Below, piece after piece: positions 2,880 to 53,763 of a stretch of DNA of 64,000 nt (positions are counted from its first letter, which is position 1; each line of letters opens with the position of its first letter). The notes under the pieces were generated by a model. That model did no database searches. It worked only from the letters and a program-made list of their open reading frames with translations, and was not told the DNA's origin. The position numbers and the translations under genes are program-made. This DNA comes from Patescibacteria group bacterium (GTDB lineage Bacteria; Patescibacteriota; Minisyncoccia; RBG-13-40-8-A). The stretch is taken from positions 29,476 through 93,475 of the forward strand of contig JAZDGD010000009.1 in assembly GCA_043807255.1 (NCBI GenBank), in the 5' to 3' direction.

Positions 2880-2911
2880 ACCATATGCTCGTCAAGTTTT
2901 TTTTAAAAATG

Positions 2912-2937
2912 TCAGAGGTCATACCTCTGACATTTGT
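2912..2937. repeat. GC-rich palindrome tgtcagaggtcatacctctgaca; second copy at 63948-63975
   Basis: Perfect 10-bp stem read directly from the sequence. A near-identical copy sits at the other end of the window. Confidence 0.6.
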
Positions 2938-3000
2938 TATTTCGCGACATCGGATATTTCCTATATTACGACATCGCAAGTCGTAATATAGCCAACAAAC

Positions 3001-3570
3001 TTAAATTCTAAAAATATCATTTATTGTTTTTGGCGTAAGTTTAAATTTTTCTTTTCGAAAAGATTTTTTTGTTACCTCGTCAATGTCTTGTGTTGAAAAA
3101 GTGTCAGCACCAATCAACTCATAATGATCGTCCACTTTACCTATTCTGCCAAAAAACACATAACCCTTCTCGGTATCAAAAGTAGCCCTATATTCATTCA
3201 TCAACCATTTTTTGTTAGTTTGTAAATCCTTAATTGTAAGACTTTTGCTTCGTTCCATGTCTAACACTTCAAACATTCCGTATTCGCTATCAAGCAAATC
3301 TTTATAGAGTTTCATTTCTAATTCATTAAGATTAAAAGGATTAGTAATAATAAAATTTTTAATTGGCGTATAGCCATTATTTAATACAAAATCGTATAGG
3401 AACCATTCGTTAAAAAAGATTTCGCCTTGTTTGGTGGTTCCAAGAGAACCGCCTCTCTCTAAATCTGGACGATTATAAAATTCACGCAAAGCGCACATTA
3501 CTTCTTCGCTAAACTCGGGCGCAGTAAAATAATATTTATATACTTTTGCTATTGATCCTTTTGGTAGCAT
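3001..3570 (-). CDS. Hypothetical protein
   Basis: 189-aa ORF with typical AT-rich codon usage. No motif recognised. Confidence 0.4.
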   Translation of the reverse strand: MLPKGSIAKVYKYYFTAPEFSEEVMCALREFYNRPDLERGGSLGTTKQGEIFFNEWFLYDFVLNNGYTPIKNFIITNPFNLNELEMKLYKDLLDSEYGMFEVLDMERSKSLTIKDLQTNKKWLMNEYRATFDTEKGYVFFGRIGKVDDHYELIGADTFSTQDIDEVTKKSFRKEKFKLTPKTINDIFRI

Positions 3571-3573
3571 AAT

Positions 3574-3888
3574 TTATAAATTTTCAACGGCTTTTTTGCG
3601 ATATAACAAAATCAATCTTTCAGAATCATATTCTTTAATTTTATCTTGTGCCATAATTATTAATCCCTCCCATGCCAAAATATTAGCTTTTATTTGAGAA
3701 ATCGCTTCGTTCTTTAACTCGTGATTTTGGATTTCTGAATCATTTTCAGCAATTTTCAAAGTCGCTTTTTCTATTTCTATGTCTTCTTCCAATCTAACTA
3801 TATCGTCTTTCTCTTCCATTTTTATTTTCTCAAGTCCCTCTAATTCTTGATTTATTCTTTCCAGTTTTTTATTTTTAACTATTTCCAT
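3574..3888 (-). CDS. Hypothetical coiled-coil protein
   Basis: 104-aa Glu/Lys-rich ORF, tightly packed (3-nt gap) with the upstream ORF. Confidence 0.35.
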   Translation of the reverse strand: MEIVKNKKLERINQELEGLEKIKMEEKDDIVRLEEDIEIEKATLKIAENDSEIQNHELKNEAISQIKANILAWEGLIIMAQDKIKEYDSERLILLYRKKAVENL

Positions 3889-4112
3889 AAATTTATTTTA
3901 ATTAATTCGTTATCTTATCTTAAATCACCCTTAATTGCCTTAGATCTTTGAAGTTATGTTTTTCAACCAAAGTATCTCTATGCCAAACTTTTAAAAGTTT
4001 GGCATCCCATTCTAAATAATCGAAGGGTTCGCAAGTAGTCTTAAAATAAGAATAAATTTTATTATATTGAGATTGGAAAATTTTATATTTCATTTTTTAT
4101 ATTTTTTTAACT

Positions 4113-4880
4113 TCATAATAATTCGTATTTGCCCGAACCAATAAATCTTAAATAATTTTTATTTCTTAAAAATTGTAATTGTTGTCGGATTTTATCCTTA
4201 ATGTGTTTATTTTCCGGATGAATAATTTTTAGGTCAGTTTCGAAATTATAAATATCTTGTAAATAAAATTCTTTTTTATCTATAAAATCAATACAATTCA
4301 TAATATCTAAAATCCAGCCCCTTGCGTCTGCTTTTTTAATTTTTTTAAGAAAAACCGTTTTTTGCCATTTATCTAAAACTTGTTTTTTAGAAATTTCTTT
4401 TCCGTTTTCTACGTAAAATACTTGCCCCGCTTTGGGAATTTTTGAAAATAAAATATTTGAACCGATCCAGCCAGCTCTTCTGGCTGTCTCTTTTAGGGGT
4501 TTTCTTTTCTCAACAATTTCAGAAACAAAAAAATGTTTTGGCACAACTAAAAAATCATTTACATACAGCGACTCTAAATATCCCATAAAAAAGAAATTTG
4601 GTTTAACTTGAGAATTTATTCTTTCTATCATTTTCGAATATGCTCCAGCGGGTATAATTTTATTAATCTTTCCTTTTTTTGATTTTAATTCAAAATCTTC
4701 ATTACATTTTTCACAATAAAAATCTGCTACTGGCTTATTGTTCTCATAATTAGTAATCTTTATATTCCCACAATTAGGACAAAAAATTTCATTGTTGACC
4801 CAGTTCTCCGTTAAAACTCTCGTTTTTTGAGATAAACTTTTGTATTTATCGGCAATTTTTGTATCGAAAGATAAATTCAT
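4113..4880 (-). CDS. DpnI-like methylation-dependent (GmATC-type) restriction endonuclease
   Basis: 255 aa. N-terminus has SQKTRVLTENWV...FCPNCGN...NNKPVADFYCEKCNEDFELKSKKG (zinc ribbon plus PD-(D/E)xK region). C-terminus has IKDKIRQQLQFLRNKNYLRFIGSGKYELL (winged helix). The layout and many residues match my recollection of S. pneumoniae DpnI (254 aa). Confidence 0.55.
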   Translation of the reverse strand: MNLSFDTKIADKYKSLSQKTRVLTENWVNNEIFCPNCGNIKITNYENNKPVADFYCEKCNEDFELKSKKGKINKIIPAGAYSKMIERINSQVKPNFFFMGYLESLYVNDFLVVPKHFFVSEIVEKRKPLKETARRAGWIGSNILFSKIPKAGQVFYVENGKEISKKQVLDKWQKTVFLKKIKKADARGWILDIMNCIDFIDKKEFYLQDIYNFETDLKIIHPENKHIKDKIRQQLQFLRNKNYLRFIGSGKYELL

Positions 4881-4939
4881 ATATTTTTATCATACCTCTT
4901 TTAATAAATTTTTACCAGCATTATAGATATTTTAACAGA

Positions 4940-5137
4940 AATACCCGAGGTCTGACCTCGGGTATTTCTGTATCTTATGAGGCTAAGCCTCGTAAGATAT
5001 AATCCTGATATCGGGAGGTTCGACCTCTAACGCCCCCCCGCATCAACACTTAATATTGGGAGGTCGAACCTCTTATTATGTGGGACGTGCGACGTCCCAC
5101 ATAAATACGAAACATACGGAGAACTGTTCTCCGTATC
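4940..5137. repeat. Array of six different GC-rich hairpins in tandem
   Basis: Hairpins: cccgaggtctgacctcggg (4945), cttatgaggctaagcctcgtaag (4975), gggaggttcgacctc (5013), gggaggtcgaacctc (5058), gtgggacgtgcgacgtcccac (5080), atacggagaactgttctccgtat (5115). Confidence 0.6.
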
Positions 5138-5173
5138 TTCTATCTGTCCACTATTAATGAGAATTTGTTTGTC

Positions 5174-5291
5174 ACTGAGACAATTTCGCAGGCAAAATGC
5201 ATGGTTTCGTCCCAACAAACATGTCGTGGACGAAATTTTGCCGAGAATTAGCACGGCCACTCGCTGGAGTGGCCGATGCGTGTCGACATGA
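5174..5291 (-). ncRNA. Conserved structured element, copy A, in the 3' region of rpsI (candidate ncRNA or cis-RNA element)
   Basis: About 75% identical to 52317-52422. Compensatory changes preserve three stems. The element ends 18 nt from the rpsI stop codon. Confidence 0.4.
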
Positions 5292-5309
5292 CAAATAAAT
5301 TCGAGTGCT

Positions 5310-5843
5310 CTATCTCTTGCTCCACTGTGGCGCCTTACGGGCTTTCTTGAGGCCGAATTTTCGACGCTCTTTCTCTCTTGGGTCTCTTTTTAAAAATCCT
5401 GCCTTCTTTAGTTTCTTTCTAAAATTAATATCAAAAATAATCAATGCTCTAGAAATACCATGTCTGATTGCTTCCGCTTGTCCAGAAATTCCACCGCCAT
5501 TAACTTTCACTGTTCCTGAAAATCGGTTTGCTGATTTTAGCTTTGCAAACGGAGATTCGATTGTTTGTTGTAAAATTTGGGTTGGAAAATATTGCTTATA
5601 ATTTTTTCCATTAACTATAAGATTCCCTGCTTCCATTGATTCTGATGGATTGACAGTAAAAAGCCGAACACGAGCAACTGCTCTTTTTCTTCTGCCAACG
5701 GCCTCAATATATTCTGACTTTTTGAGCTTCCTCTCTCCAACAACGTCTTCAGAAATAGGCAGGACAACCTGAATATCCTCTGTACTTTCAGCGGGTTTTT
5801 TGGCCACTTTAACAGATTTAATTTTACTTGATTTCTCCGGCAT
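5310..5843 (-). CDS. rpsI: 30S ribosomal protein S9 (with N-terminal extension)
   Basis: C-terminus GRRKRAVARVRLF...RKFGLKKARKAPQWSKR is typical of S9. Confidence 0.85.
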   Translation of the reverse strand: MPEKSSKIKSVKVAKKPAESTEDIQVVLPISEDVVGERKLKKSEYIEAVGRRKRAVARVRLFTVNPSESMEAGNLIVNGKNYKQYFPTQILQQTIESPFAKLKSANRFSGTVKVNGGGISGQAEAIRHGISRALIIFDINFRKKLKKAGFLKRDPREKERRKFGLKKARKAPQWSKR

Positions 5844-12705: not shown

Positions 12706-13266
12706 TTATTCGAATCTTACTTTTTTAACTAAAAGAAAATCTACAAAAGATTTTAAATTATATTGTTCAATCAATTCTTTGGTTTCTTTCTCTGTGTCAT
12801 ATTGGCAAACCCAAATACTTTGTTGCATTTTTTTATATCCTAAATATTTCAATCCCCTCCTAAACCAATCCCTGTCTTTTCGCCTACTTTCCGATATGTC
12901 AAATAAAACCATTTGCCACTTTCTGTCTTTTCTTAGGTTATTGTCTGTCAATTTTAATTTTGTGATAAATAATTTTTCGAAACCTTTTGATGTAATTATT
13001 ACGGCCGATTTATCCTTCGCTCTTAACGTTTTCAAATAACCACTACTTTTTAACTTACAAACCGTTCCAGCAAATCTTCTTTTGCTTTTTTCCCTTTCGC
13101 GTTTCTTTTTGTTTTCATTTGTCCACTCGTCTCTGAATGTATTGAAGTCGGAAAAACGCAACCCTCCTCTTTCGGGAATAATTTTGCCAATTACGTCTTT
13201 TGTTTTATTTTTGAAATTATATAAATCCCAAAGAAATTGTTCGGTAAATGGTAATTTAAGTCTCAT
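12706..13266 (-). CDS. Winged-helix / Cas2-VapD-like fusion protein (paralog 1)
   Basis: The C-terminal half, KWQMVLFDISESRRKDRDWFRRGLKYLGYKKMQQSIWVCQYD, matches the Cas2 core pattern (hVhhhYDI..RR..h...L...G.RhQxSVFxC). The N-terminal half, CKLKSSGYLKTL...VIITSKGFEKL, looks like a winged helix. Confidence 0.55.
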   Translation of the reverse strand: MRLKLPFTEQFLWDLYNFKNKTKDVIGKIIPERGGLRFSDFNTFRDEWTNENKKKREREKSKRRFAGTVCKLKSSGYLKTLRAKDKSAVIITSKGFEKLFITKLKLTDNNLRKDRKWQMVLFDISESRRKDRDWFRRGLKYLGYKKMQQSIWVCQYDTEKETKELIEQYNLKSFVDFLLVKKVRFE

Positions 13267-20095: not shown

Positions 20096-21960
20096 TTATT
20101 TTGTTGTCTCTCCTTCCTGGATATCCGGATTTTTGTCGTCTTTTTTTTGCGCTTCTTGTTGTGCTTTATATAATTCAGTTCCAACTTTTTGAATTGCTTG
20201 CGATAACGATTCTGACGCTTTTTTAATGCCCTCGATATCATCGCTATCTTTTATTTTCTTCAATGCCTCCACCCTGTCTTCAATTTCTTTTTTGTCTTCT
20301 GCTTTTATTTTATCACCAAATTCTTTTATTGTCTTCTCGGTTGAAAAAACTAAAGTATCGGCAGTATTTCTAATATCAACAACTTCTTTTTTCTTTTTAT
20401 CTTCTTCTGCGTGAATCTCTGCGTCTTTTTTCATTTTTTCAATGTCTTCTTTCGATAAACCTGAAGACGCTTCAATCCTAATTGATTGTTTTTTGTTTGT
20501 TGCTTTATCCAAGGCAGAAACATTTAAAACTCCGTTTGCATCAAGATCAAACGTAACTTCAACTTGCGGAATTCCTTTTGGTGCTGGCGGAATGCCATCC
20601 AAAATAAACCTACCTAGAGTTTTATTGTCACCAGCCATTGGTCTTTCGCCCTGAAGCACATGAATTTCAACTGACGGCTGATTGTCGCCTGCGGTAGAAA
20701 ACACCTGTGTCTTTGCAGCTGGAATGGTTGTGTTTTTTCAACCAATCTAGTCATAACACTACCTAAAGTTTCTATCCCCAATGATAATGGAGTGACGTCT
20801 AACAATAAAACATCTTTAACGTCTCCTTGAAATATGCCACCCTGAACAGCGGCACCCAAAGCAACTACTTCGTCGGGATTAATATCTTTGTGTGGTTCCT
20901 TGCCAAACAAATCTTTAACTTTTTGTTGCATTAATGGCATTCTGGTTTGACCGCCAACTAAAACAACTTCATCAATATCGGTAATTTTAAATCCTGAATC
21001 ATCAACAACTTGTTTGGTGATTTTTATTGCTTTGTCGATATATTCGCCAACTAAGTCCTCTAATTTTGCACGAGTAAATTTAACGTTTAAATGTTTTGGT
21101 CCATCCGAACCGCTAGTAATAAATGGAATGTTTACCTCTGTTTCAATCGCCGAAGATAATTCATGTTTTGCTTTTTCGGCAGCGTCTTTTAATCTCTGAA
21201 TTGCTAATTGATCTTTTGCCAAATCAATTCCCTCTTGTTTTTTAAATTCGTCAACAAGCCAATTCATAATGATTTGATCAAAGTCATCTCCGCCCAAGTG
21301 TGTATCGCCACCGGTTGATTTAACTTCGACGGTGTCTTTAGAAACTTCAAGCACTGAGACATCAAACGTTCCACCACCGAAATCAAAAACAACAATTTGC
21401 TCGTCTTTCTTTTTATTCAATCCGTAGGCAAGAGCAGCTGCGGTTGGTTCGTTAATAATTCTTTTAACTTTTAATCCAGCAATTTCCCCAGCGTCAATGG
21501 TCGCTTTTCTTTGTGCGTCATCAAAATAAGCCGGAACAGTAATAACTGCTTCAGTGATTTTTTCTCCCAACTTGTCTTCGGCGTCTTGTTTTAGTTTCTG
21601 TAAAATCATTGCAGAAATTTCAGCTGGTCCTTGCCATTTACCATTTAAATTAACTTCTACCGCACCTTCTTTTGATGCTCTGATTTCATAGGGTAAAAGT
21701 TTTTTATCACGCTGAACTTCGGCATCAGAAAATCTTCTGCCGATTAATCTTTTTACAGAATAAACTGTATTTTTCGAATTGGTTACAGCTTGTCTTTTTG
21801 CTAAAAGACCAACCAAACGTTCGCCTGCTTTTGAAACAGCAACAATCGAAGGAGTTGTTCTGTTTCCTTCTTTGTTTTCAATTATTCTTGGCTCGCCTCC
21901 CTCAACAATTGCCATCGCTGAATTAGTCGTGCCCAAATCGATACCTAATATCTTTGACAT
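20096..21960 (-). CDS. dnaK: Chaperone DnaK (Hsp70); reading frame broken by a -1 shift at a T6 homopolymer (20733-20738)
   Basis: ORFs 20614..21960 and 20096..20704 together span DnaK. With 7 T instead of 6, translation reads ...[33 protein letters not shown]. Confidence 0.85.
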
Positions 21961-30885: not shown

Positions 30886-30916
30886 AAATCTTACGAGGTT
30901 AAACCTCGTAAGATTT
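30886..30916. repeat. REP-like palindrome, copy 1 (aaatcttacgaggttaaacctcgtaagattt)
   Basis: Perfect 14-bp inverted repeat overlapping the transposase stop codon. Confidence 0.7.
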
Positions 30917-31610
30917 ATTCTAATGACAATTCTCTTGCGTCGTTTACTGCCATGTCCTTCAGCCATTTTTCTATATTTTGTTTGTATTTCCCATCTCCAC
31001 CAAACACTCCCAATAAAAATTCTCTATTTGTAATTGAAGGAAAGTTCTTTTTACCTGCGTAATCCAAATAACTAGACCAACGATAATTGCCTAAATATTC
31101 CATCGCTCCGTTATAATTATTTAGTTTTCTTGCTCGCCATTCCGGAAAACTGAGATCTAGTGGATTCAAATGAATATAATATGGAAGGTTTAAGAAATGA
31201 TTTTGTTTGTCGATTAAAATTGATTTATACGTACTCTGAAATAATGTTCCCCTTCTTTTGTATTTTTTATTGAATGACATCGTATAACCGGTTCCTAATT
31301 TTTGCATAAACCTAGAAATACCATTATCTTTTTTCTGTTTCAACAATAAATGATAATGATTTGGCATCAAACAAAATGCTAAAATTTCCACAAGCAATTT
31401 TCTCTCTTTAATCTTGCGAGGTTTAACCTCGTAAGATTCTAGGTCCATAGATTTATAATATATATTTTCTGCGGGTGCCTCATCGTTAAATTCATACAGA
31501 TCGTGAATAAAACGAAGATGGTCCTTGTCGTCTGCAAATATGTTTCTCTGTTCAACTCCGTGATTTAAAACGTGATAAATTTCATTATTTTCAAATTGTG
31601 GTTTTTTCAT
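30915..31610 (-). mobile_element. tnpA: IS200/IS605-type Y1 (HUH) transposase, REP-associated (RAYT-like)
   Basis: N-terminal YHVLNHGVEQRNIF, HUH motif PNHYHLLL, and catalytic Tyr context GTLFQSTYKSILID. Flanked by REP-like palindromes. Confidence 0.6.
31410..31438. repeat. REP-like palindrome, copy 2, inside the transposase CDS in-frame
   Basis: aatcttgcgaggtttaacctcgtaagatt, which encodes SYEVKPRKI. Confidence 0.65.
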
Positions 31611-31640: not shown

Positions 31641-31667
31641 GTTTACGAGGTTAAACCTCGTAAGATT
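31641..31667. repeat. REP-like palindrome, copy 3
   Basis: gtttacgaggttaaacctcgtaagatta. Confidence 0.7.
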
Positions 31668-31721: not shown

Positions 31722-31794
31722 GGCCCCATCGTCTAGTGGCCCAGGACATCAGATTCTCATTCTGAAAACACCGGTTCAACTCCGGTTGGGGCTA
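31722..31794 (+). tRNA. tRNA-Glu (anticodon CTC)
   Basis: Hand-folded cloverleaf: acceptor GGCCCCA/TGGGGCT, anticodon loop TTCTCAT, T-loop TTCAACT. Confidence 0.7.
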
Positions 31795-31800
31795 AAACCA

Positions 31801-31833
31801 AAAATCTTACGAGGTTTAACCTCGTAAGATTTT
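31801..31833. repeat. REP-like palindrome, copy 4
   Basis: aaaatcttacgaggtttaacctcgtaagatttt. Confidence 0.7.
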
Positions 31834-37679: not shown

Positions 37680-38255
37680 CTAATTGATTTTAAATGTTTC
37701 TCTTAACTCTCTATCATCTCCTATTCTGTCGGCCACGATTAATCTAATTTCGTTTTCGGTTAATCCAAAAAAATCTCTCAACAAATCGATTTCATCTTTA
37801 CAATTAAATGGATGGATCCAAACACTTTTTTGAATTAATTGAAATCCCAACTCTTTTAATTTTCCGCGAAAAGCATCTCTATGGGCCTTTTTCAAATGTG
37901 CAATATCAAACATAACCAATCTCCATTTCTTGTCCCATTTTTTCGGTTTACCGATCTTTAATTCGTCTATCTGCATCCAACCAGCTTTTCTCTTGCCTTT
38001 GTCCGTAAGCGAAATATGCATGCCACCTTTTTTGATTTCTATCTTTATCAATCCTTGTTTCTTGAGTTTATAAAAATTGTCTTGCACCTTTTTGTTGCCA
38101 TATCTTTTAAATTGCTTCAATCCCCTCATTAAATTTCGTATAAAATAAGGAGAACTAGCCGCGACGACAACTGCACCAGAAATTAATAGTGCTATCAAAA
38201 TATCTTTAACAATTTCAGATTTTGGTTTTTTAAAATAATATTTATATTTTGTCAT
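37680..38255 (-). CDS. Winged-helix / Cas2-VapD-like fusion protein (paralog 2, with N-terminal TM helix)
   Basis: KKWRLVMFDIAHLKKAHRDAFRGKLKELGFQLIQKSVWIHPFN is Cas2-like. FYKLKKQGLIKIEIKKGGMHISLTDKGKR is wHTH-like. Aligns along its length with paralog 1. Confidence 0.55.
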   Translation of the reverse strand: MTKYKYYFKKPKSEIVKDILIALLISGAVVVAASSPYFIRNLMRGLKQFKRYGNKKVQDNFYKLKKQGLIKIEIKKGGMHISLTDKGKRKAGWMQIDELKIGKPKKWDKKWRLVMFDIAHLKKAHRDAFRGKLKELGFQLIQKSVWIHPFNCKDEIDLLRDFFGLTENEIRLIVADRIGDDRELRETFKIN

Positions 38256-52287: not shown

Positions 52288-52315
52288 CCCTCACCCAAAG
52301 TGAGGATTTATTTTA
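52288..52315. terminator. Bidirectional terminator (ccctcacccaaagtgaggg with flanking T/A tracts)
   Basis: Hairpin followed by TTTATTTT. Confidence 0.65.
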
Positions 52316-52316
52316 T

Positions 52317-52422
52317 ACTGAGACAACTTCGGAAGCCAAAAGCACGGTTTTTTCTGAAAGAAAAATTTTGGCTGAGAATTAATGCAGCCACCCGCTGGGG
52401 TGGCTGACATGTGTCGACATAT
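52317..52422 (-). ncRNA. Conserved structured element, copy B (3' region of the SLT-domain gene)
   Basis: Aligns with 5174-5291. Ends 18 nt after the stop codon of 52441..53763. Confidence 0.4.
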
Positions 52423-52440
52423 AAAATGAATCTGAGCGTC

Positions 52441-53763
52441 CTACCCTTTTTCCATAATATCAATTTGTTCTTGAAAATTTTCTGCTCTTTCCATCACTTG
52501 ATCACCATAAAAACGCAAAGACGATTTTTGCCAATTTGCACCGGCCAAATACATCATTGTTGCTTTCCATTCTGCTTTTTCTGTTTTTTGATCAGCCCCC
52601 TTATTCACCAAATATAGTGCCGAAGCAATAAATGCATCTTTAACATTCCACGGTGATGGCGGATTATTTCCTGTTATTTCTGCAATTTTTGCCTTATACC
52701 CCAACCAAGTGGCTGGCATCATTTGCGCTGGGCCCATTGCCCCACCCCAACCATACCAAACCTTTTTTGATACTGGATATTTATCTGGGTCAATTCCCAA
52801 TTCTTCACAAATCTGTAAATAATAAGTTCTTTGGCTTAGTTTCATATCAACTCGCCACGTTCCTTTGCCAATATTTTTTCCCAATTCTGATTCTCTGCTT
52901 AAAATTGCCAAAAGAAACGCTGGCCTTATTCCAGTATGAATTCCTGCAAATTTTGCATATTTATATGCATCTTCAAACCTTAACGAACCATCAGTTGATA
53001 TGTCTTGCAAAAAATAAAGTTTGTTTTTTATCGTTTCTATGTCGGCCTGAGTTTTTTTCATTAACTGATTAAACAGATTTTCTTGGCCATTGGTTTGGGC
53101 CAATAAATTATTCCTTTGTTTTTTCTTTAGTTCCAACCCAGCCCTCTGTTCGGCTTGTATATATTTTAATGATGCCTGTTCTTCTTTCTCGTTCACTAAA
53201 TCTGTTTTTTCTTTTTCTAAGGTTGATTTTGCATTAGAAATTTTCTTAAGCTGTTCTTGAACCTGTTGATGAAAATTTTCTAAAGATCTTATTTCCGAAA
53301 GAAAATCCGATAAACTCCCTTCAGTCAAAACCACTTCTACAAGCGAAGTGTCGTCATATTTTCTCACTTCTCTCAATAATTCGGCAATAGTTGTTTTTTC
53401 TAAATCAACTTCGCGCTCTATTTCGCGAATTGATTTTTCTTTTTGATTTATTTGCTTGTCGAGTTTCTTAATCAACAAATCAGTTCTTTGAATTTCTAAT
53501 TCTGCAGAATTAATTTGTGCATCTAAAATCACGATTTCTGTTTTTAATGATTTTGCCTGTTGTTGATTTTCGGTTATTGCTTGCTGATACTGGCCAATTT
53601 TTGATTCCAATTCTTTTAGTCGTGCCTCTGCTTCTTGCTCTTGGACATCAATATCGAGAGATGTCTCGGCAAAAACAAAACCCGCTCTAAGCGGAAAAAC
53701 GCAAAAAATGGCAATAATTGCCATTAAAATAAAACTTTTATTAAGTTTAACAAACTTAATCAT
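52441..53763 (-). CDS. Secreted coiled-coil protein with a C-terminal lytic transglycosylase (SLT) domain
   Basis: Signal peptide, long coiled coil, and GGAMGPAQMMPATW with SLT-domain-like context. Confidence 0.6.
   Translation of the reverse strand: MIKFVKLNKSFILMAIIAIFCVFPLRAGFVFAETSLDIDVQEQEAEARLKELESKIGQYQQAITENQQQAKSLKTEIVILDAQINSAELEIQRTDLLIKKLDKQINQKEKSIREIEREVDLEKTTIAELLREVRKYDDTSLVEVVLTEGSLSDFLSEIRSLENFHQQVQEQLKKISNAKSTLEKEKTDLVNEKEEQASLKYIQAEQRAGLELKKKQRNNLLAQTNGQENLFNQLMKKTQADIETIKNKLYFLQDISTDGSLRFEDAYKYAKFAGIHTGIRPAFLLAILSRESELGKNIGKGTWRVDMKLSQRTYYLQICEELGIDPDKYPVSKKVWYGWGGAMGPAQMMPATWLGYKAKIAEITGNNPPSPWNVKDAFIASALYLVNKGADQKTEKAEWKATMMYLAGANWQKSSLRFYGDQVMERAENFQEQIDIMEKG

Follow-up and report, generated by a model that had tools for sequence, protein, structure and literature searches.

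What kind of genetic element is a long, branching palindrome that recurs behind the stop codons of unrelated bacterial genes? The question is raised by a stretch of 64,000 nucleotides (nt) from a Patescibacteria group bacterium (assembly GCA_043807255.1, contig JAZDGD010000009.1), called the window throughout, in which the original prediction described a structured element in two copies: copy A at 5174-5291, behind rpsI, and copy B at 52317-52422, behind a gene with an SLT domain. Both copies sit where they were first described, with the shared start ACTGAGACAA and the shared end GTGTCGACAT, and scans with patterns and a covariance model (CM) find no copy in the window beyond these two. Comparison with some 130 family members suggests a tentative answer, held at somewhat less than an even chance: the element may be a non-autonomous palindromic repeat of about 140 nt that is copied between sites, in the manner of repetitive extragenic palindromes (REP), their doublets (REPIN) or miniature inverted-repeat transposable elements (MITE), with a branched fold on the strand antisense to the adjacent gene, a position otherwise held by terminators, and a gene-strand transcript that supplies a 3' hairpin.

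A covarying T-shaped fold

The three stems originally named in the two copies do differ by compensatory changes, and the junction sequence GAGAATTA is common to both. In a pairwise alignment the similarity between the copies continues into both flanks, at 79% over 180 nt. The 18 nt that had been taken for a linker between element and stop codon base-pair with a matching 17-19 nt on the opposite side to form an outer stem, a pairing that becomes clear once more copies are compared. The distance of 18 nt to the stop codon thus holds for the described core at both genes, but the supposed linker is an arm of the outer stem and the boundaries had been drawn too narrowly. The true units span 5157-5306 for copy A and 52300-52437 for copy B, with 3 nt between each unit and the stop codon. 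Compared with shuffled sequences, the core folded as RNA reaches z scores of -3.7 to -5.1 on both strands of copies A and B, and the whole units folded as DNA reach -6 to -10; the same fold is obtained with DNA parameters.

This fold is a long stem topped by a three-way junction with two hairpins, P2 and P3, giving it the shape of a T. The outer stem is A/T-rich, 17-26 bp long and interrupted by tandem G·A mismatches; inside it lie a 4-bp helix, GACA/UGUC, and then the three-way junction. In P2 the bulge GCAYGGU is conserved and the loop is a GNA triloop; P3 combines a hypervariable stem with a CGCUGG loop. On the plus strand the consensus of the family reads (A)GCGARG-ATTTATTTTACA-C-TGA-GACA-AYTTCGSA-(P2a, bulge GCAYGGT, P2b, triloop)-GAGAATTA-(P3, loop CGCTGG)-G-TGTC-GAC-A-TGTAAAATAAAT-CYGAGC.

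Covariation supports this structure throughout. In an alignment of 85 distinct copies, which was fitted to the CM and hence leans towards that model, 96.3% of the cells at paired positions hold standard pairs, against 35-48% when the partners are slid by one to three columns. Double-sided changes occur in 41 of the 50 pairs, with 780 compensatory cells, and none of 500 shuffles reaches any of five covariation measures. An independent run of MAFFT and RNAalifold on 19 copies finds double changes in 29 of 42 pairs. The P3 stem behaves as a "barcode", hypervariable between invariant flanks. The arms, inverted repeats of 17-26 nt, vary by compensatory change (helices 1-2), and therefore conserved structure fits them better than an end sequence bound by a protein. 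Beyond 20 nt on the left side of the core anchors and 19 nt on the right, conservation breaks off abruptly. The claim of a conserved structured element with covariation is thus upheld: chance similarity is excluded, and both the family and its structure are well supported.

The copies in the window

Copy A matches the CM at 151.6 bits, and its extent (5157-5306, with the plus strand as the strand that appears to fold) agrees with flank alignment, flank pairing and both DNA and RNA folds. Its left outer-stem arm (P0/P1, 5157-5175) pairs with 5288-5306 in a stem that covaries family-wide; the irregularities are a tandem G·A (5159-5160 with 5303-5304) and one G·T wobble. Next comes 5176-5182, comprising the UGA strand of an internal loop and the 5' strand of P1b, GACA (5179-5182), invariant in 85 of 85 distinct copies. 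The P2 arm (5191-5242) consists of P2a (5191-5197 with 5236-5242), the conserved bulge TGCATGG (5198-5204) and P2b (5205-5212 with 5228-5235), which has a 15-nt loop insertion peculiar to this copy; across the family, the two helices of this arm (helices 3-4) show double changes at every pair. The junction strand GAGAATTA (5243-5250) reads UAAUUCUC on the gene strand, where it directly follows the P3 hairpin, and is invariant in all main-family copies not anchored on it, including those found with a pattern that did not require it. P3 itself (5251-5279) closes with the conserved loop C-GCTG-G, and its stem (helix 5) shows double changes in 10 of 12 pairs. The 3' side (5280-5306), which contains most of the former linker, is made up of a G, the 3' strand of P1b (TGTC, 5281-5284), the loop strand GAC (5285-5287) and the right arm (5288-5306). 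Three nucleotides beyond it, on the minus strand, stands the TAG stop codon (5310-5312) of rpsI (open reading frame, ORF, 5310-5843, with PF00380 homologues).

Copy B (52300-52437, plus strand, 156.6 bits, supported by folds and alignment) repeats this plan. The left arm (52300-52318) is followed by TGA (52319-52321) and P1b (52322-52325 with 52412-52415), and the right arm lies at 52419-52437. P2 is built from P2a (52334-52341 with 52366-52373), the bulge (52342-52348) and P2b (52349-52355 with 52359-52365, closed by a GAA triloop); the junction GAGAATTA occupies 52374-52381 and P3 52382-52410. The TAG stop codon of the SLT-domain gene (52441-52443, minus strand; ORF 52441-53763) again lies 3 nt from the base. 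On the other side, the terminator hairpin of a convergent release-factor gene (52289-52305, plus strand) has as its 3' half GTGAGG, the outermost bases of the left arm, and within the terminator region (52289-52318) the left-arm sequence ATTTATTTT acts as the T-tract. Copy B and this terminator share bases and therefore overlap, so the two could compete for pairing.

A dispersed family in Patescibacteria

Further homologues were sought and found. An exact 24-base pattern retrieves 17 further copies from five Patescibacteria metagenome-assembled genomes, labelled at source as Saccharibacteria, Portnoybacteria RBG_13_40_8 and Patescibacteria group, and a second pattern, which requires neither the junction nor P3, matches 99 metagenome stretches. 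A CM built from 19 copies then gives 24, 90 and 21 matches in the fetched DNA, diverged variants included. The family totals about 130 CM matches, all from Patescibacteria-type genomes or metagenomes, with a unit length of about 140 nt. Its density amounts to two copies in the 64-kb window and about one extra copy per 45 kb of flanking DNA.

Several variants depart from the main form. One has a short P2; in another, "subfamily 2", the 4-bp helix and its G·A loop are replaced by a Watson-Crick helix of 6-7 bp, AAAGAC/GTCTTT; others carry hairpins inserted at peripheral positions. A distant relative at L025:310-474 (L-numbers denote fetched loci) occupies the same genomic position, behind a stop codon that belongs to the opposite strand. 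It shares its architecture with the diverged relatives of subfamily 2 at L034:926-1077, L027:6851-6984, L111:3672-3824, L092:8223-8375 and L082:1979-2139, and a broader superfamily probably exists beyond the reach of the patterns.

Searches outside this group are negative. The strict pattern has no match in viral contigs and the loose pattern only 20 chance matches, and BLAST of phage and plasmid records finds no match to the element. A scan of the window at the gathering thresholds of Rfam 15 reports six tRNAs only, and E-value scans of copies A and B with their flanks, on both strands and up to E = 10, give scattered sub-threshold matches only; the proposed comparison with Rfam thus yields no family. 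A literature search that included conserved sequence strings found no description of the element, which is absent from Rfam, without a published description in the literature searched, and previously uncatalogued. Self-cleaving ribozymes (hammerhead, hairpin, twister and others) were considered and set aside: there is no Rfam match and, by eye, CUGAGAC misfits CUGANGA and the junction strands misfit GAAA. Readings as a K-turn, box C/D, parS, 5S-like or tRNA-like sequence fail on the absence of the defining sequences.

Could the likeness be due to chance, to faulty assembly or to the simple duplication of a terminator? Three copies (L060:4662-4815, L040:11150-11301 and L074:974-1126) have left and right arms of different subtypes that do not pair, and could be assembly chimeras; in L060 the left flank resembles L114 and the right flank L102. 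Such copies may reflect either recombination between copies or chimeric assembly of metagenomes at the repeat. For the family as a whole, an artefact is refuted by some 130 copies, which come from independent assemblies and studies and covary massively, and this explanation has next to no probability.

Two of the copies also harbour a smaller repeat. A perfect palindrome of 20 nt, CCTGCCTGCCGGCAGGCAGG, occurs at different internal positions in L105:2797-2971 and L136:10526-10648, which come from different assemblies, suggesting a second, tiny mobile hairpin.

Placement behind stop codons

The tie to gene ends that the two window copies had suggested extends to the family. In 93 of 111 copies an ORF of at least 50 amino acids on the opposite strand ends 13-33 nt from GTGTCGAC, mostly at 18-24 nt, so that the base of the stem adjoins or includes the stop codon; the remaining copies are mostly cut by contig ends. 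The spacing between element and stop codon is 0-6 nt. The upstream genes fall into 35 families, and those examined are all housekeeping genes, including lysS, fba, murF, rlmE, apt, fpg, dnaJ, rpsI and ftsW, in neighbourhoods of conserved synteny. The gap before the next same-strand gene varies (quartiles 15, 64 and 130 nt). Of 79 copies with a downstream ORF, 22 lie within 20 nt of its start codon, often without a visible Shine-Dalgarno sequence, and in locus L111 every intergenic gap of a 5-kb stretch contains a copy, four in all.

Orientation with respect to genes is nearly fixed. The only copy in the minority arrangement, L084:2322-2475, has the same orientation as the surrounding genes; about 120 nt before it a gene ends, followed by its canonical terminator, and a promoter-like site comes after the copy. 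Both flanks of the element are G-poor on the plus strand (4-5%), and they contain no conserved promoter or terminator, the information outside the unit being at most 0.5 bit.

The stop codon beside the element is TAG in 54% of copies, compared with 20% for ORFs of at least 200 amino acids in the same contigs, and across the 93 copies 18 of the 35 gene families have a majority of TAG stops. Part of this excess comes from pairing of the stop codon into the conserved end (TAGC...GCTA in some subfamilies), and the pattern of stop codons yields no consistent model of insertion. On the gene strand, TAA directly follows the far end of the element in 27% of copies (19 of 70).

The strand that folds

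Which strand carries the fold? Every test run points to the window's plus strand, which lies antisense to the gene next to the element. Folded as RNA, whole units have the lower energy on the plus strand in 20 of 21 copies, with a mean difference of 6.5 kcal/mol, and the antisense strand is also lower for the core (87 of 95 copies) and for the arms (70 of 94); under DNA parameters the plus strand is likewise favoured, in 8 of 8 copies. On that strand G·U is commoner than A·C, by 101 to 43 overall and at 23 versus 9 pairs (p = 0.02). The non-canonical positions of this strand are purine-purine, pyrimidine-pyrimidine mismatches being rare. Tandem G·A occurs at three places (near the base, beside the GACA helix and in a P2a variant), its replacements, where present, are Watson-Crick pairs, and P2b is closed mostly by a C-GNA-G triloop. 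Pair counts, mismatch types and folding energies thus all favour the plus strand, against the earlier proposal of an RNA element within the 3' untranslated region read from the minus strand.

Stable hairpins of single-stranded DNA typically contain GNA triloops and sheared G·A pairs, and in RNA triloops are uncommon. The mismatch types and triloops make single-stranded DNA the more likely form of the element. A folded single-stranded nucleic acid of this kind would be recognised by a protein specific for both strand and structure.

A family of antisense small-RNA genes on the better-folding strand, arising for example from divergent promoter activity downstream and converging with the 3' end of the upstream gene, would also account for a strand preference. 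The favoured strand has RNA-like features in its G·U pairs, tandem sheared G·A and conserved junction and loop nucleotides, and the structure is very stable, modular and tolerant of peripheral insertions. However, neither a conserved promoter upstream nor a conserved terminator downstream brackets the element on that strand, as a free-standing small-RNA gene of the kind first suggested would lead one to expect. Many copies lie so close to the next start codon (within 20 nt) that a promoter has no room, the triloops are unusual for stable RNA hairpins, and there is no obvious logic to dozens of near-identical RNAs directed against unrelated housekeeping genes. Small-RNA genes are accordingly an improbable explanation.

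A second alternative treats the element as a recombination site that is used as a folded single strand, like the attC sites of integrons, in particular those of the Vibrio cholerae repeat (VCR) type, at which a tyrosine recombinase would shuffle the adjacent gene. The likeness is considerable: both are imperfect palindromes of 120-150 nt placed directly behind an ORF, with conserved unpaired bases and a better-folding strand antisense to that ORF, which is here most likely the leading-strand template, and loci such as L111 present runs of gene, element and gene. Nevertheless, the neighbours are core housekeeping genes in conserved synteny rather than cassettes, and the ends read (A)GCGARG ... 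CYGAGC, without RYYYAAC or GTTRRRY core sites. Neither an integrase gene nor an adjacent array is seen, and the copies are scattered. A site of this type is highly improbable.

Copying, gain and loss between sites

Evidence of copying or movement comes from the barcode stem. One and the same P3 segment of 29 nt can recur behind up to 11 differing flanks of upstream genes; a few of these flanks look orthologous, which leaves about nine distinct genes. Conversely, orthologous sites (behind murF, the SLT gene, the aldolase gene and ftsW) bear different P3 stems in different organisms. Copies within a genome are no more alike than copies from different genomes (similarity 0.76 versus 0.73), and the nearest neighbours of a copy are often found at non-orthologous loci of other genomes. 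The occupied positions in the apt-mtnP operon vary among relatives, and one truncated remnant exists alongside the copies with mismatched arms.

At the rpsI site the relatives form a series. Four relatives (L138 and L140-142, with RpsI identities of 81-82%) have an empty site, with a plain terminator and then a promoter. In L143-145 (RpsI 87-88%) the half next to the stop codon is kept, namely the arm, GTCGAYAC and the P3 hairpin; a U-tract adjoins this hairpin, and after it comes the promoter seen at the empty sites. L136 (OZ246412.1) has a copy without P2, with TTTTG after P3, and the window has the full element. This series indicates that the element occupies the slot of an intrinsic terminator and can decay into an ordinary terminator.

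Together, identical P3 stems at different genes, differing P3 stems at orthologous sites, and empty and half sites point to copying or mobility. Of the three functions originally offered, a "structured mobile insertion that targets gene ends" fits best, given the identical P3 at unrelated genes, the empty and half sites and the lack of clustering by genome, and the element is probably mobile.

The same locus differs among relatives in its downstream content. In L136, L138, L140 and L143 rpsI is directly followed by genes for a CAP-domain protein and a sortase, and the window has about 2.3 kb between them (2880-5156). This insert encodes a methyl-directed restriction endonuclease of the DpnI-like type (4113-4880) as well as three small ORFs, of which those at 3001-3570 and 3574-3888 have no family match; the third lies at 3920-4093.

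A terminator slot on the gene strand

On the gene strand P3 is followed by (G)CAC-UAAUUCUC. Could a role in the mRNA be the whole purpose of the element? It would then be a cis-acting part of the transcript, serving to terminate or attenuate transcription, to block 3' exonucleases, to offer RNase III a processing site in the outer stem, or to clamp the upstream stop codon and the downstream start codon together. Transcription with the upstream gene is certain, the element lacks a conserved promoter, and the next start lies within 20 nt in 22 of the 79 copies that have a downstream ORF. At rpsI the element sits in the place of a terminator, degenerate versions of it are terminators of the canonical type (L136, L143 and L145 have full U-tracts), and another canonical terminator stands before the next gene in only 13 of 96 copies. 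In a lenient scan for terminators on the gene strand, the P3 of copy B passes and that of copy A does not. The fixed orientation and the spacing of 0-6 nt from the stop codon would follow from a role at the RNA level, and the retention of orthologous copies with compensatory change implies function.

Against this reading, the asymmetry of wobbles and mismatches and the folding energies favour the other strand in every helix, and the gene strand turns the conserved internal loops into tandem pyrimidine mismatches and G·U into A·C. The tract UAAUUCUC is invariant and has four U in eight, unlike a U-tract. Copy A and copy B each have a distinct canonical terminator after them, and termination within operons would be polar. 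As for intrinsic terminators in general, the element shares with them its slot and, on the gene strand, a G+C-rich hairpin with a freely covarying stem and a U-rich stretch behind it; it is, however, five times their size and has a conserved junction, a further arm and a stem around the whole, none of which a terminator needs, and its structure is better on the other strand. The identical P3 stems at unrelated loci would need copying on this account too. An mRNA element is the main rival reading, somewhat less probable than the mobile repeat.

Mobile repeat and mRNA element are not mutually exclusive. The copies of a mobile repeat may persist because the element on the gene strand gives the mRNA a stable 3' hairpin, with the G+C-rich P3 and the following UAAUUCUC standing in for a terminator or 3' stabiliser and decaying in time into an ordinary terminator.

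Three other features of the gene strand were considered and rejected. A promoter within the element, composed of a -10-like TAAAAT in one arm and a -35-like TTGSCY 17-18 nt upstream, is flagged for copy B only and lost in many copies. A mini-ORF across P3 (AUG or UUG-UCG-ACA ... CAC-UAA) is a by-product of invariant bases of the main family and is absent from subfamily 2 and L143. A UUCG tetraloop misfits in register, the loop being a triloop.

Candidate movers and the case against mobility

If the element is a mobile repeat, what moves it? A Pfam survey of the window yields one candidate, a gene at 30915-31610 (minus strand) for a single-strand DNA transposase of the Y1 (HUH) class resembling a REP-associated tyrosine transposase (RAYT). 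Its product has the motifs HYH and YYIHLNP and matches PF01797 at E 7.9e-11, above the cut-off, and its best NCBIfam match is REP-associated tyrosine transposase, at 46.6 bits and below the cut-off of 80. Homologues of this gene are widespread in Patescibacteria. On either side of it lie copies of the 29-nt hairpin ATCTTACGAGGTTNAACCTCGTAAGAT, at 30889-30913, 31641-31665 and 31805-31829, the last of them beyond a tRNA gene (31722-31794). The same hairpin lies in frame inside the transposase ORF (31412-31436, encoding ...SYEVKPRKI...), and it recurs at the same codon positions in two homologues that are 85% and 72% identical (L146:10175-10199 and L147:10175-10199). This arrangement shows that hairpin biology of single-strand DNA is active in this genome. 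The RAYT-like transposase is a candidate for the mover of the 140-nt element, and is a lead rather than a finding.

Next to copy A, an array at 4937-5140 contains six different perfect or near-perfect hairpins, several with a GAGG-N5-CCTC core. Its second hairpin (4973-4997) is a copy, with one mismatch, of the hairpin that flanks the RAYT-like gene, and its last (5114-5136) scores as a bidirectional terminator-like hairpin. Hairpins of the form CGGAGGT...ACCTCCG also abut copies of the element in L031/L061 and in L054.

Several observations weigh against a mobile repeat of this type. The RAYT-like gene is flanked by a different hairpin, both in the window and in the two relatives L146 and L147; the 140-nt element does not contain that hairpin, CM searches of the 20-kb neighbourhoods of the two homologues find no copy of the element, and tblastn of the fetched loci finds no further RAYT gene. 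Nor is there an autonomous version, a pair of separated ends or an adjacent transposase in about 0.73 Mb of fetched flanking DNA. Direct repeats at the boundaries, the mark of a target-site duplication, are no commoner than in shuffled pairings of left and right flanks, the sole signal being a weak excess of the 4-mer AGCG, which is part of the element itself. Neither boundary has a conserved target motif (at most 0.5 bit of information), and TA, which adjoins the left boundary in 31% of copies and the right in about 10%, is unsupported as a target.

The strand preference, though consistent, is modest, with a mean difference of 6.5 kcal/mol in a total of about 60, and the two strands adopt one and the same fold. 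GC skew ranges from -0.06 to -0.26 across the plus strand of the window, with the genes on the minus strand, so that on the replication direction this implies the favoured strand is most likely the leading-strand template. In elements of the IS200/IS605 type the active strand is on the lagging-strand template. Orthologous copies are moreover kept across species whose flanking proteins are about 80% identical, changing by compensatory substitution, which looks like purifying selection for a function of the host and not like pure selfishness. The copies are, finally, non-independent samples.

Comparison with known repeats

The closest parallels are the REP sequences, bacterial interspersed mosaic elements (BIME) and REPIN, together with RAYT. 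These too are short extragenic palindromes present in many copies per genome, at the 3' ends of genes or between cistrons, without coding capacity or target-site duplication. Folded single-stranded DNA is probably the form in which they are handled, and they can lend stability to the upstream mRNA. The window even holds a RAYT-like gene with REP hairpins of its own. The element differs in being branched, with a three-way junction in place of a simple hairpin or doublet, and in its far stricter orientation and spacing from the stop codon, and the dispersed sequence is not the one that flanks the RAYT-like gene.

Correia elements of Neisseria, the enterobacterial repetitive intergenic consensus (ERIC, also intergenic repeat unit, IRU) and bcr1 of Bacillus cereus are MITE-like repeats of 100-160 bp with inverted ends, located between genes or at 3' ends and transcribed with genes, that form long hairpins in mRNA; for some, compensatory changes have been reported. 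They occur in both orientations and have target-site duplications (TA for Correia, TTTAT for bcr1). The element resembles them in size, inverted ends, location and folding into a long hairpin. Unlike them, it has a nearly fixed orientation and no target-site duplication that could be found, and its inverted ends covary, which fits a conserved structure better than a conserved sequence bound by a transposase.

Two further comparisons remain. The inverted terminal repeats of adeno-associated virus, T-shaped parvovirus hairpins of about 145 nt of single-stranded DNA with a long stem and two short arms, are recognised by an HUH nuclease. The analogy is one of shape only: they are the genome ends of a eukaryotic virus, without sequence relation to what is here a chromosomal repeat. 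The palindrome-associated transposable elements (PATE) derived from IS200/IS605 have a conserved target of four or five nucleotides just 5' of the left end, and hairpins at ends that are not complementary. The present element lacks such a target motif, its two ends pair with each other, and its folded strand would most likely be the leading-strand rather than the lagging-strand template.

These comparisons leave room for a bolder version of the mobile repeat, which is quite unlikely as matters stand: a new type of single-strand-active unit restricted to Patescibacteria, in which the branched T hairpin would be bound in its folded form by a dedicated protein, possibly an HUH protein, would home behind stop codons, displace terminators and be co-opted as a "punctuation" of operons. 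Such a unit would account for purifying selection at orthologous sites, for the fixed orientation and for the excess of TAG.

Other features of the window

Two observations stand apart from the element. The dnaK gene (HSP70) is split into overlapping ORFs at 20614-21960 and 20096-20704, as a result of a frameshift, pseudogene formation or a sequencing error. Two paralogous ORFs of about 190 amino acids, at 12706-13266 and 37680-38255, have the central (Cas2-like) domain of PaaX, and no CRISPR array was noticed nearby.

Implications

The genomes of Patescibacteria are tiny and streamlined, with little intergenic DNA, and yet this family places about 140 nt behind perhaps one gene in every 30-45 kb. 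Selection on its structure extends across lineages labelled Saccharibacteria, Portnoybacteria and Patescibacteria group. The CM is ready for use in annotating Patescibacteria genomes, and it points to sites at which the assembly of metagenome bins breaks or yields chimeras. If the element is mobile, as it probably is, it would represent a non-autonomous element that is specific for both site and orientation. If it is functional, it would constitute a widespread module of 3' ends and intercistronic regions in a major and poorly understood branch of the bacteria.

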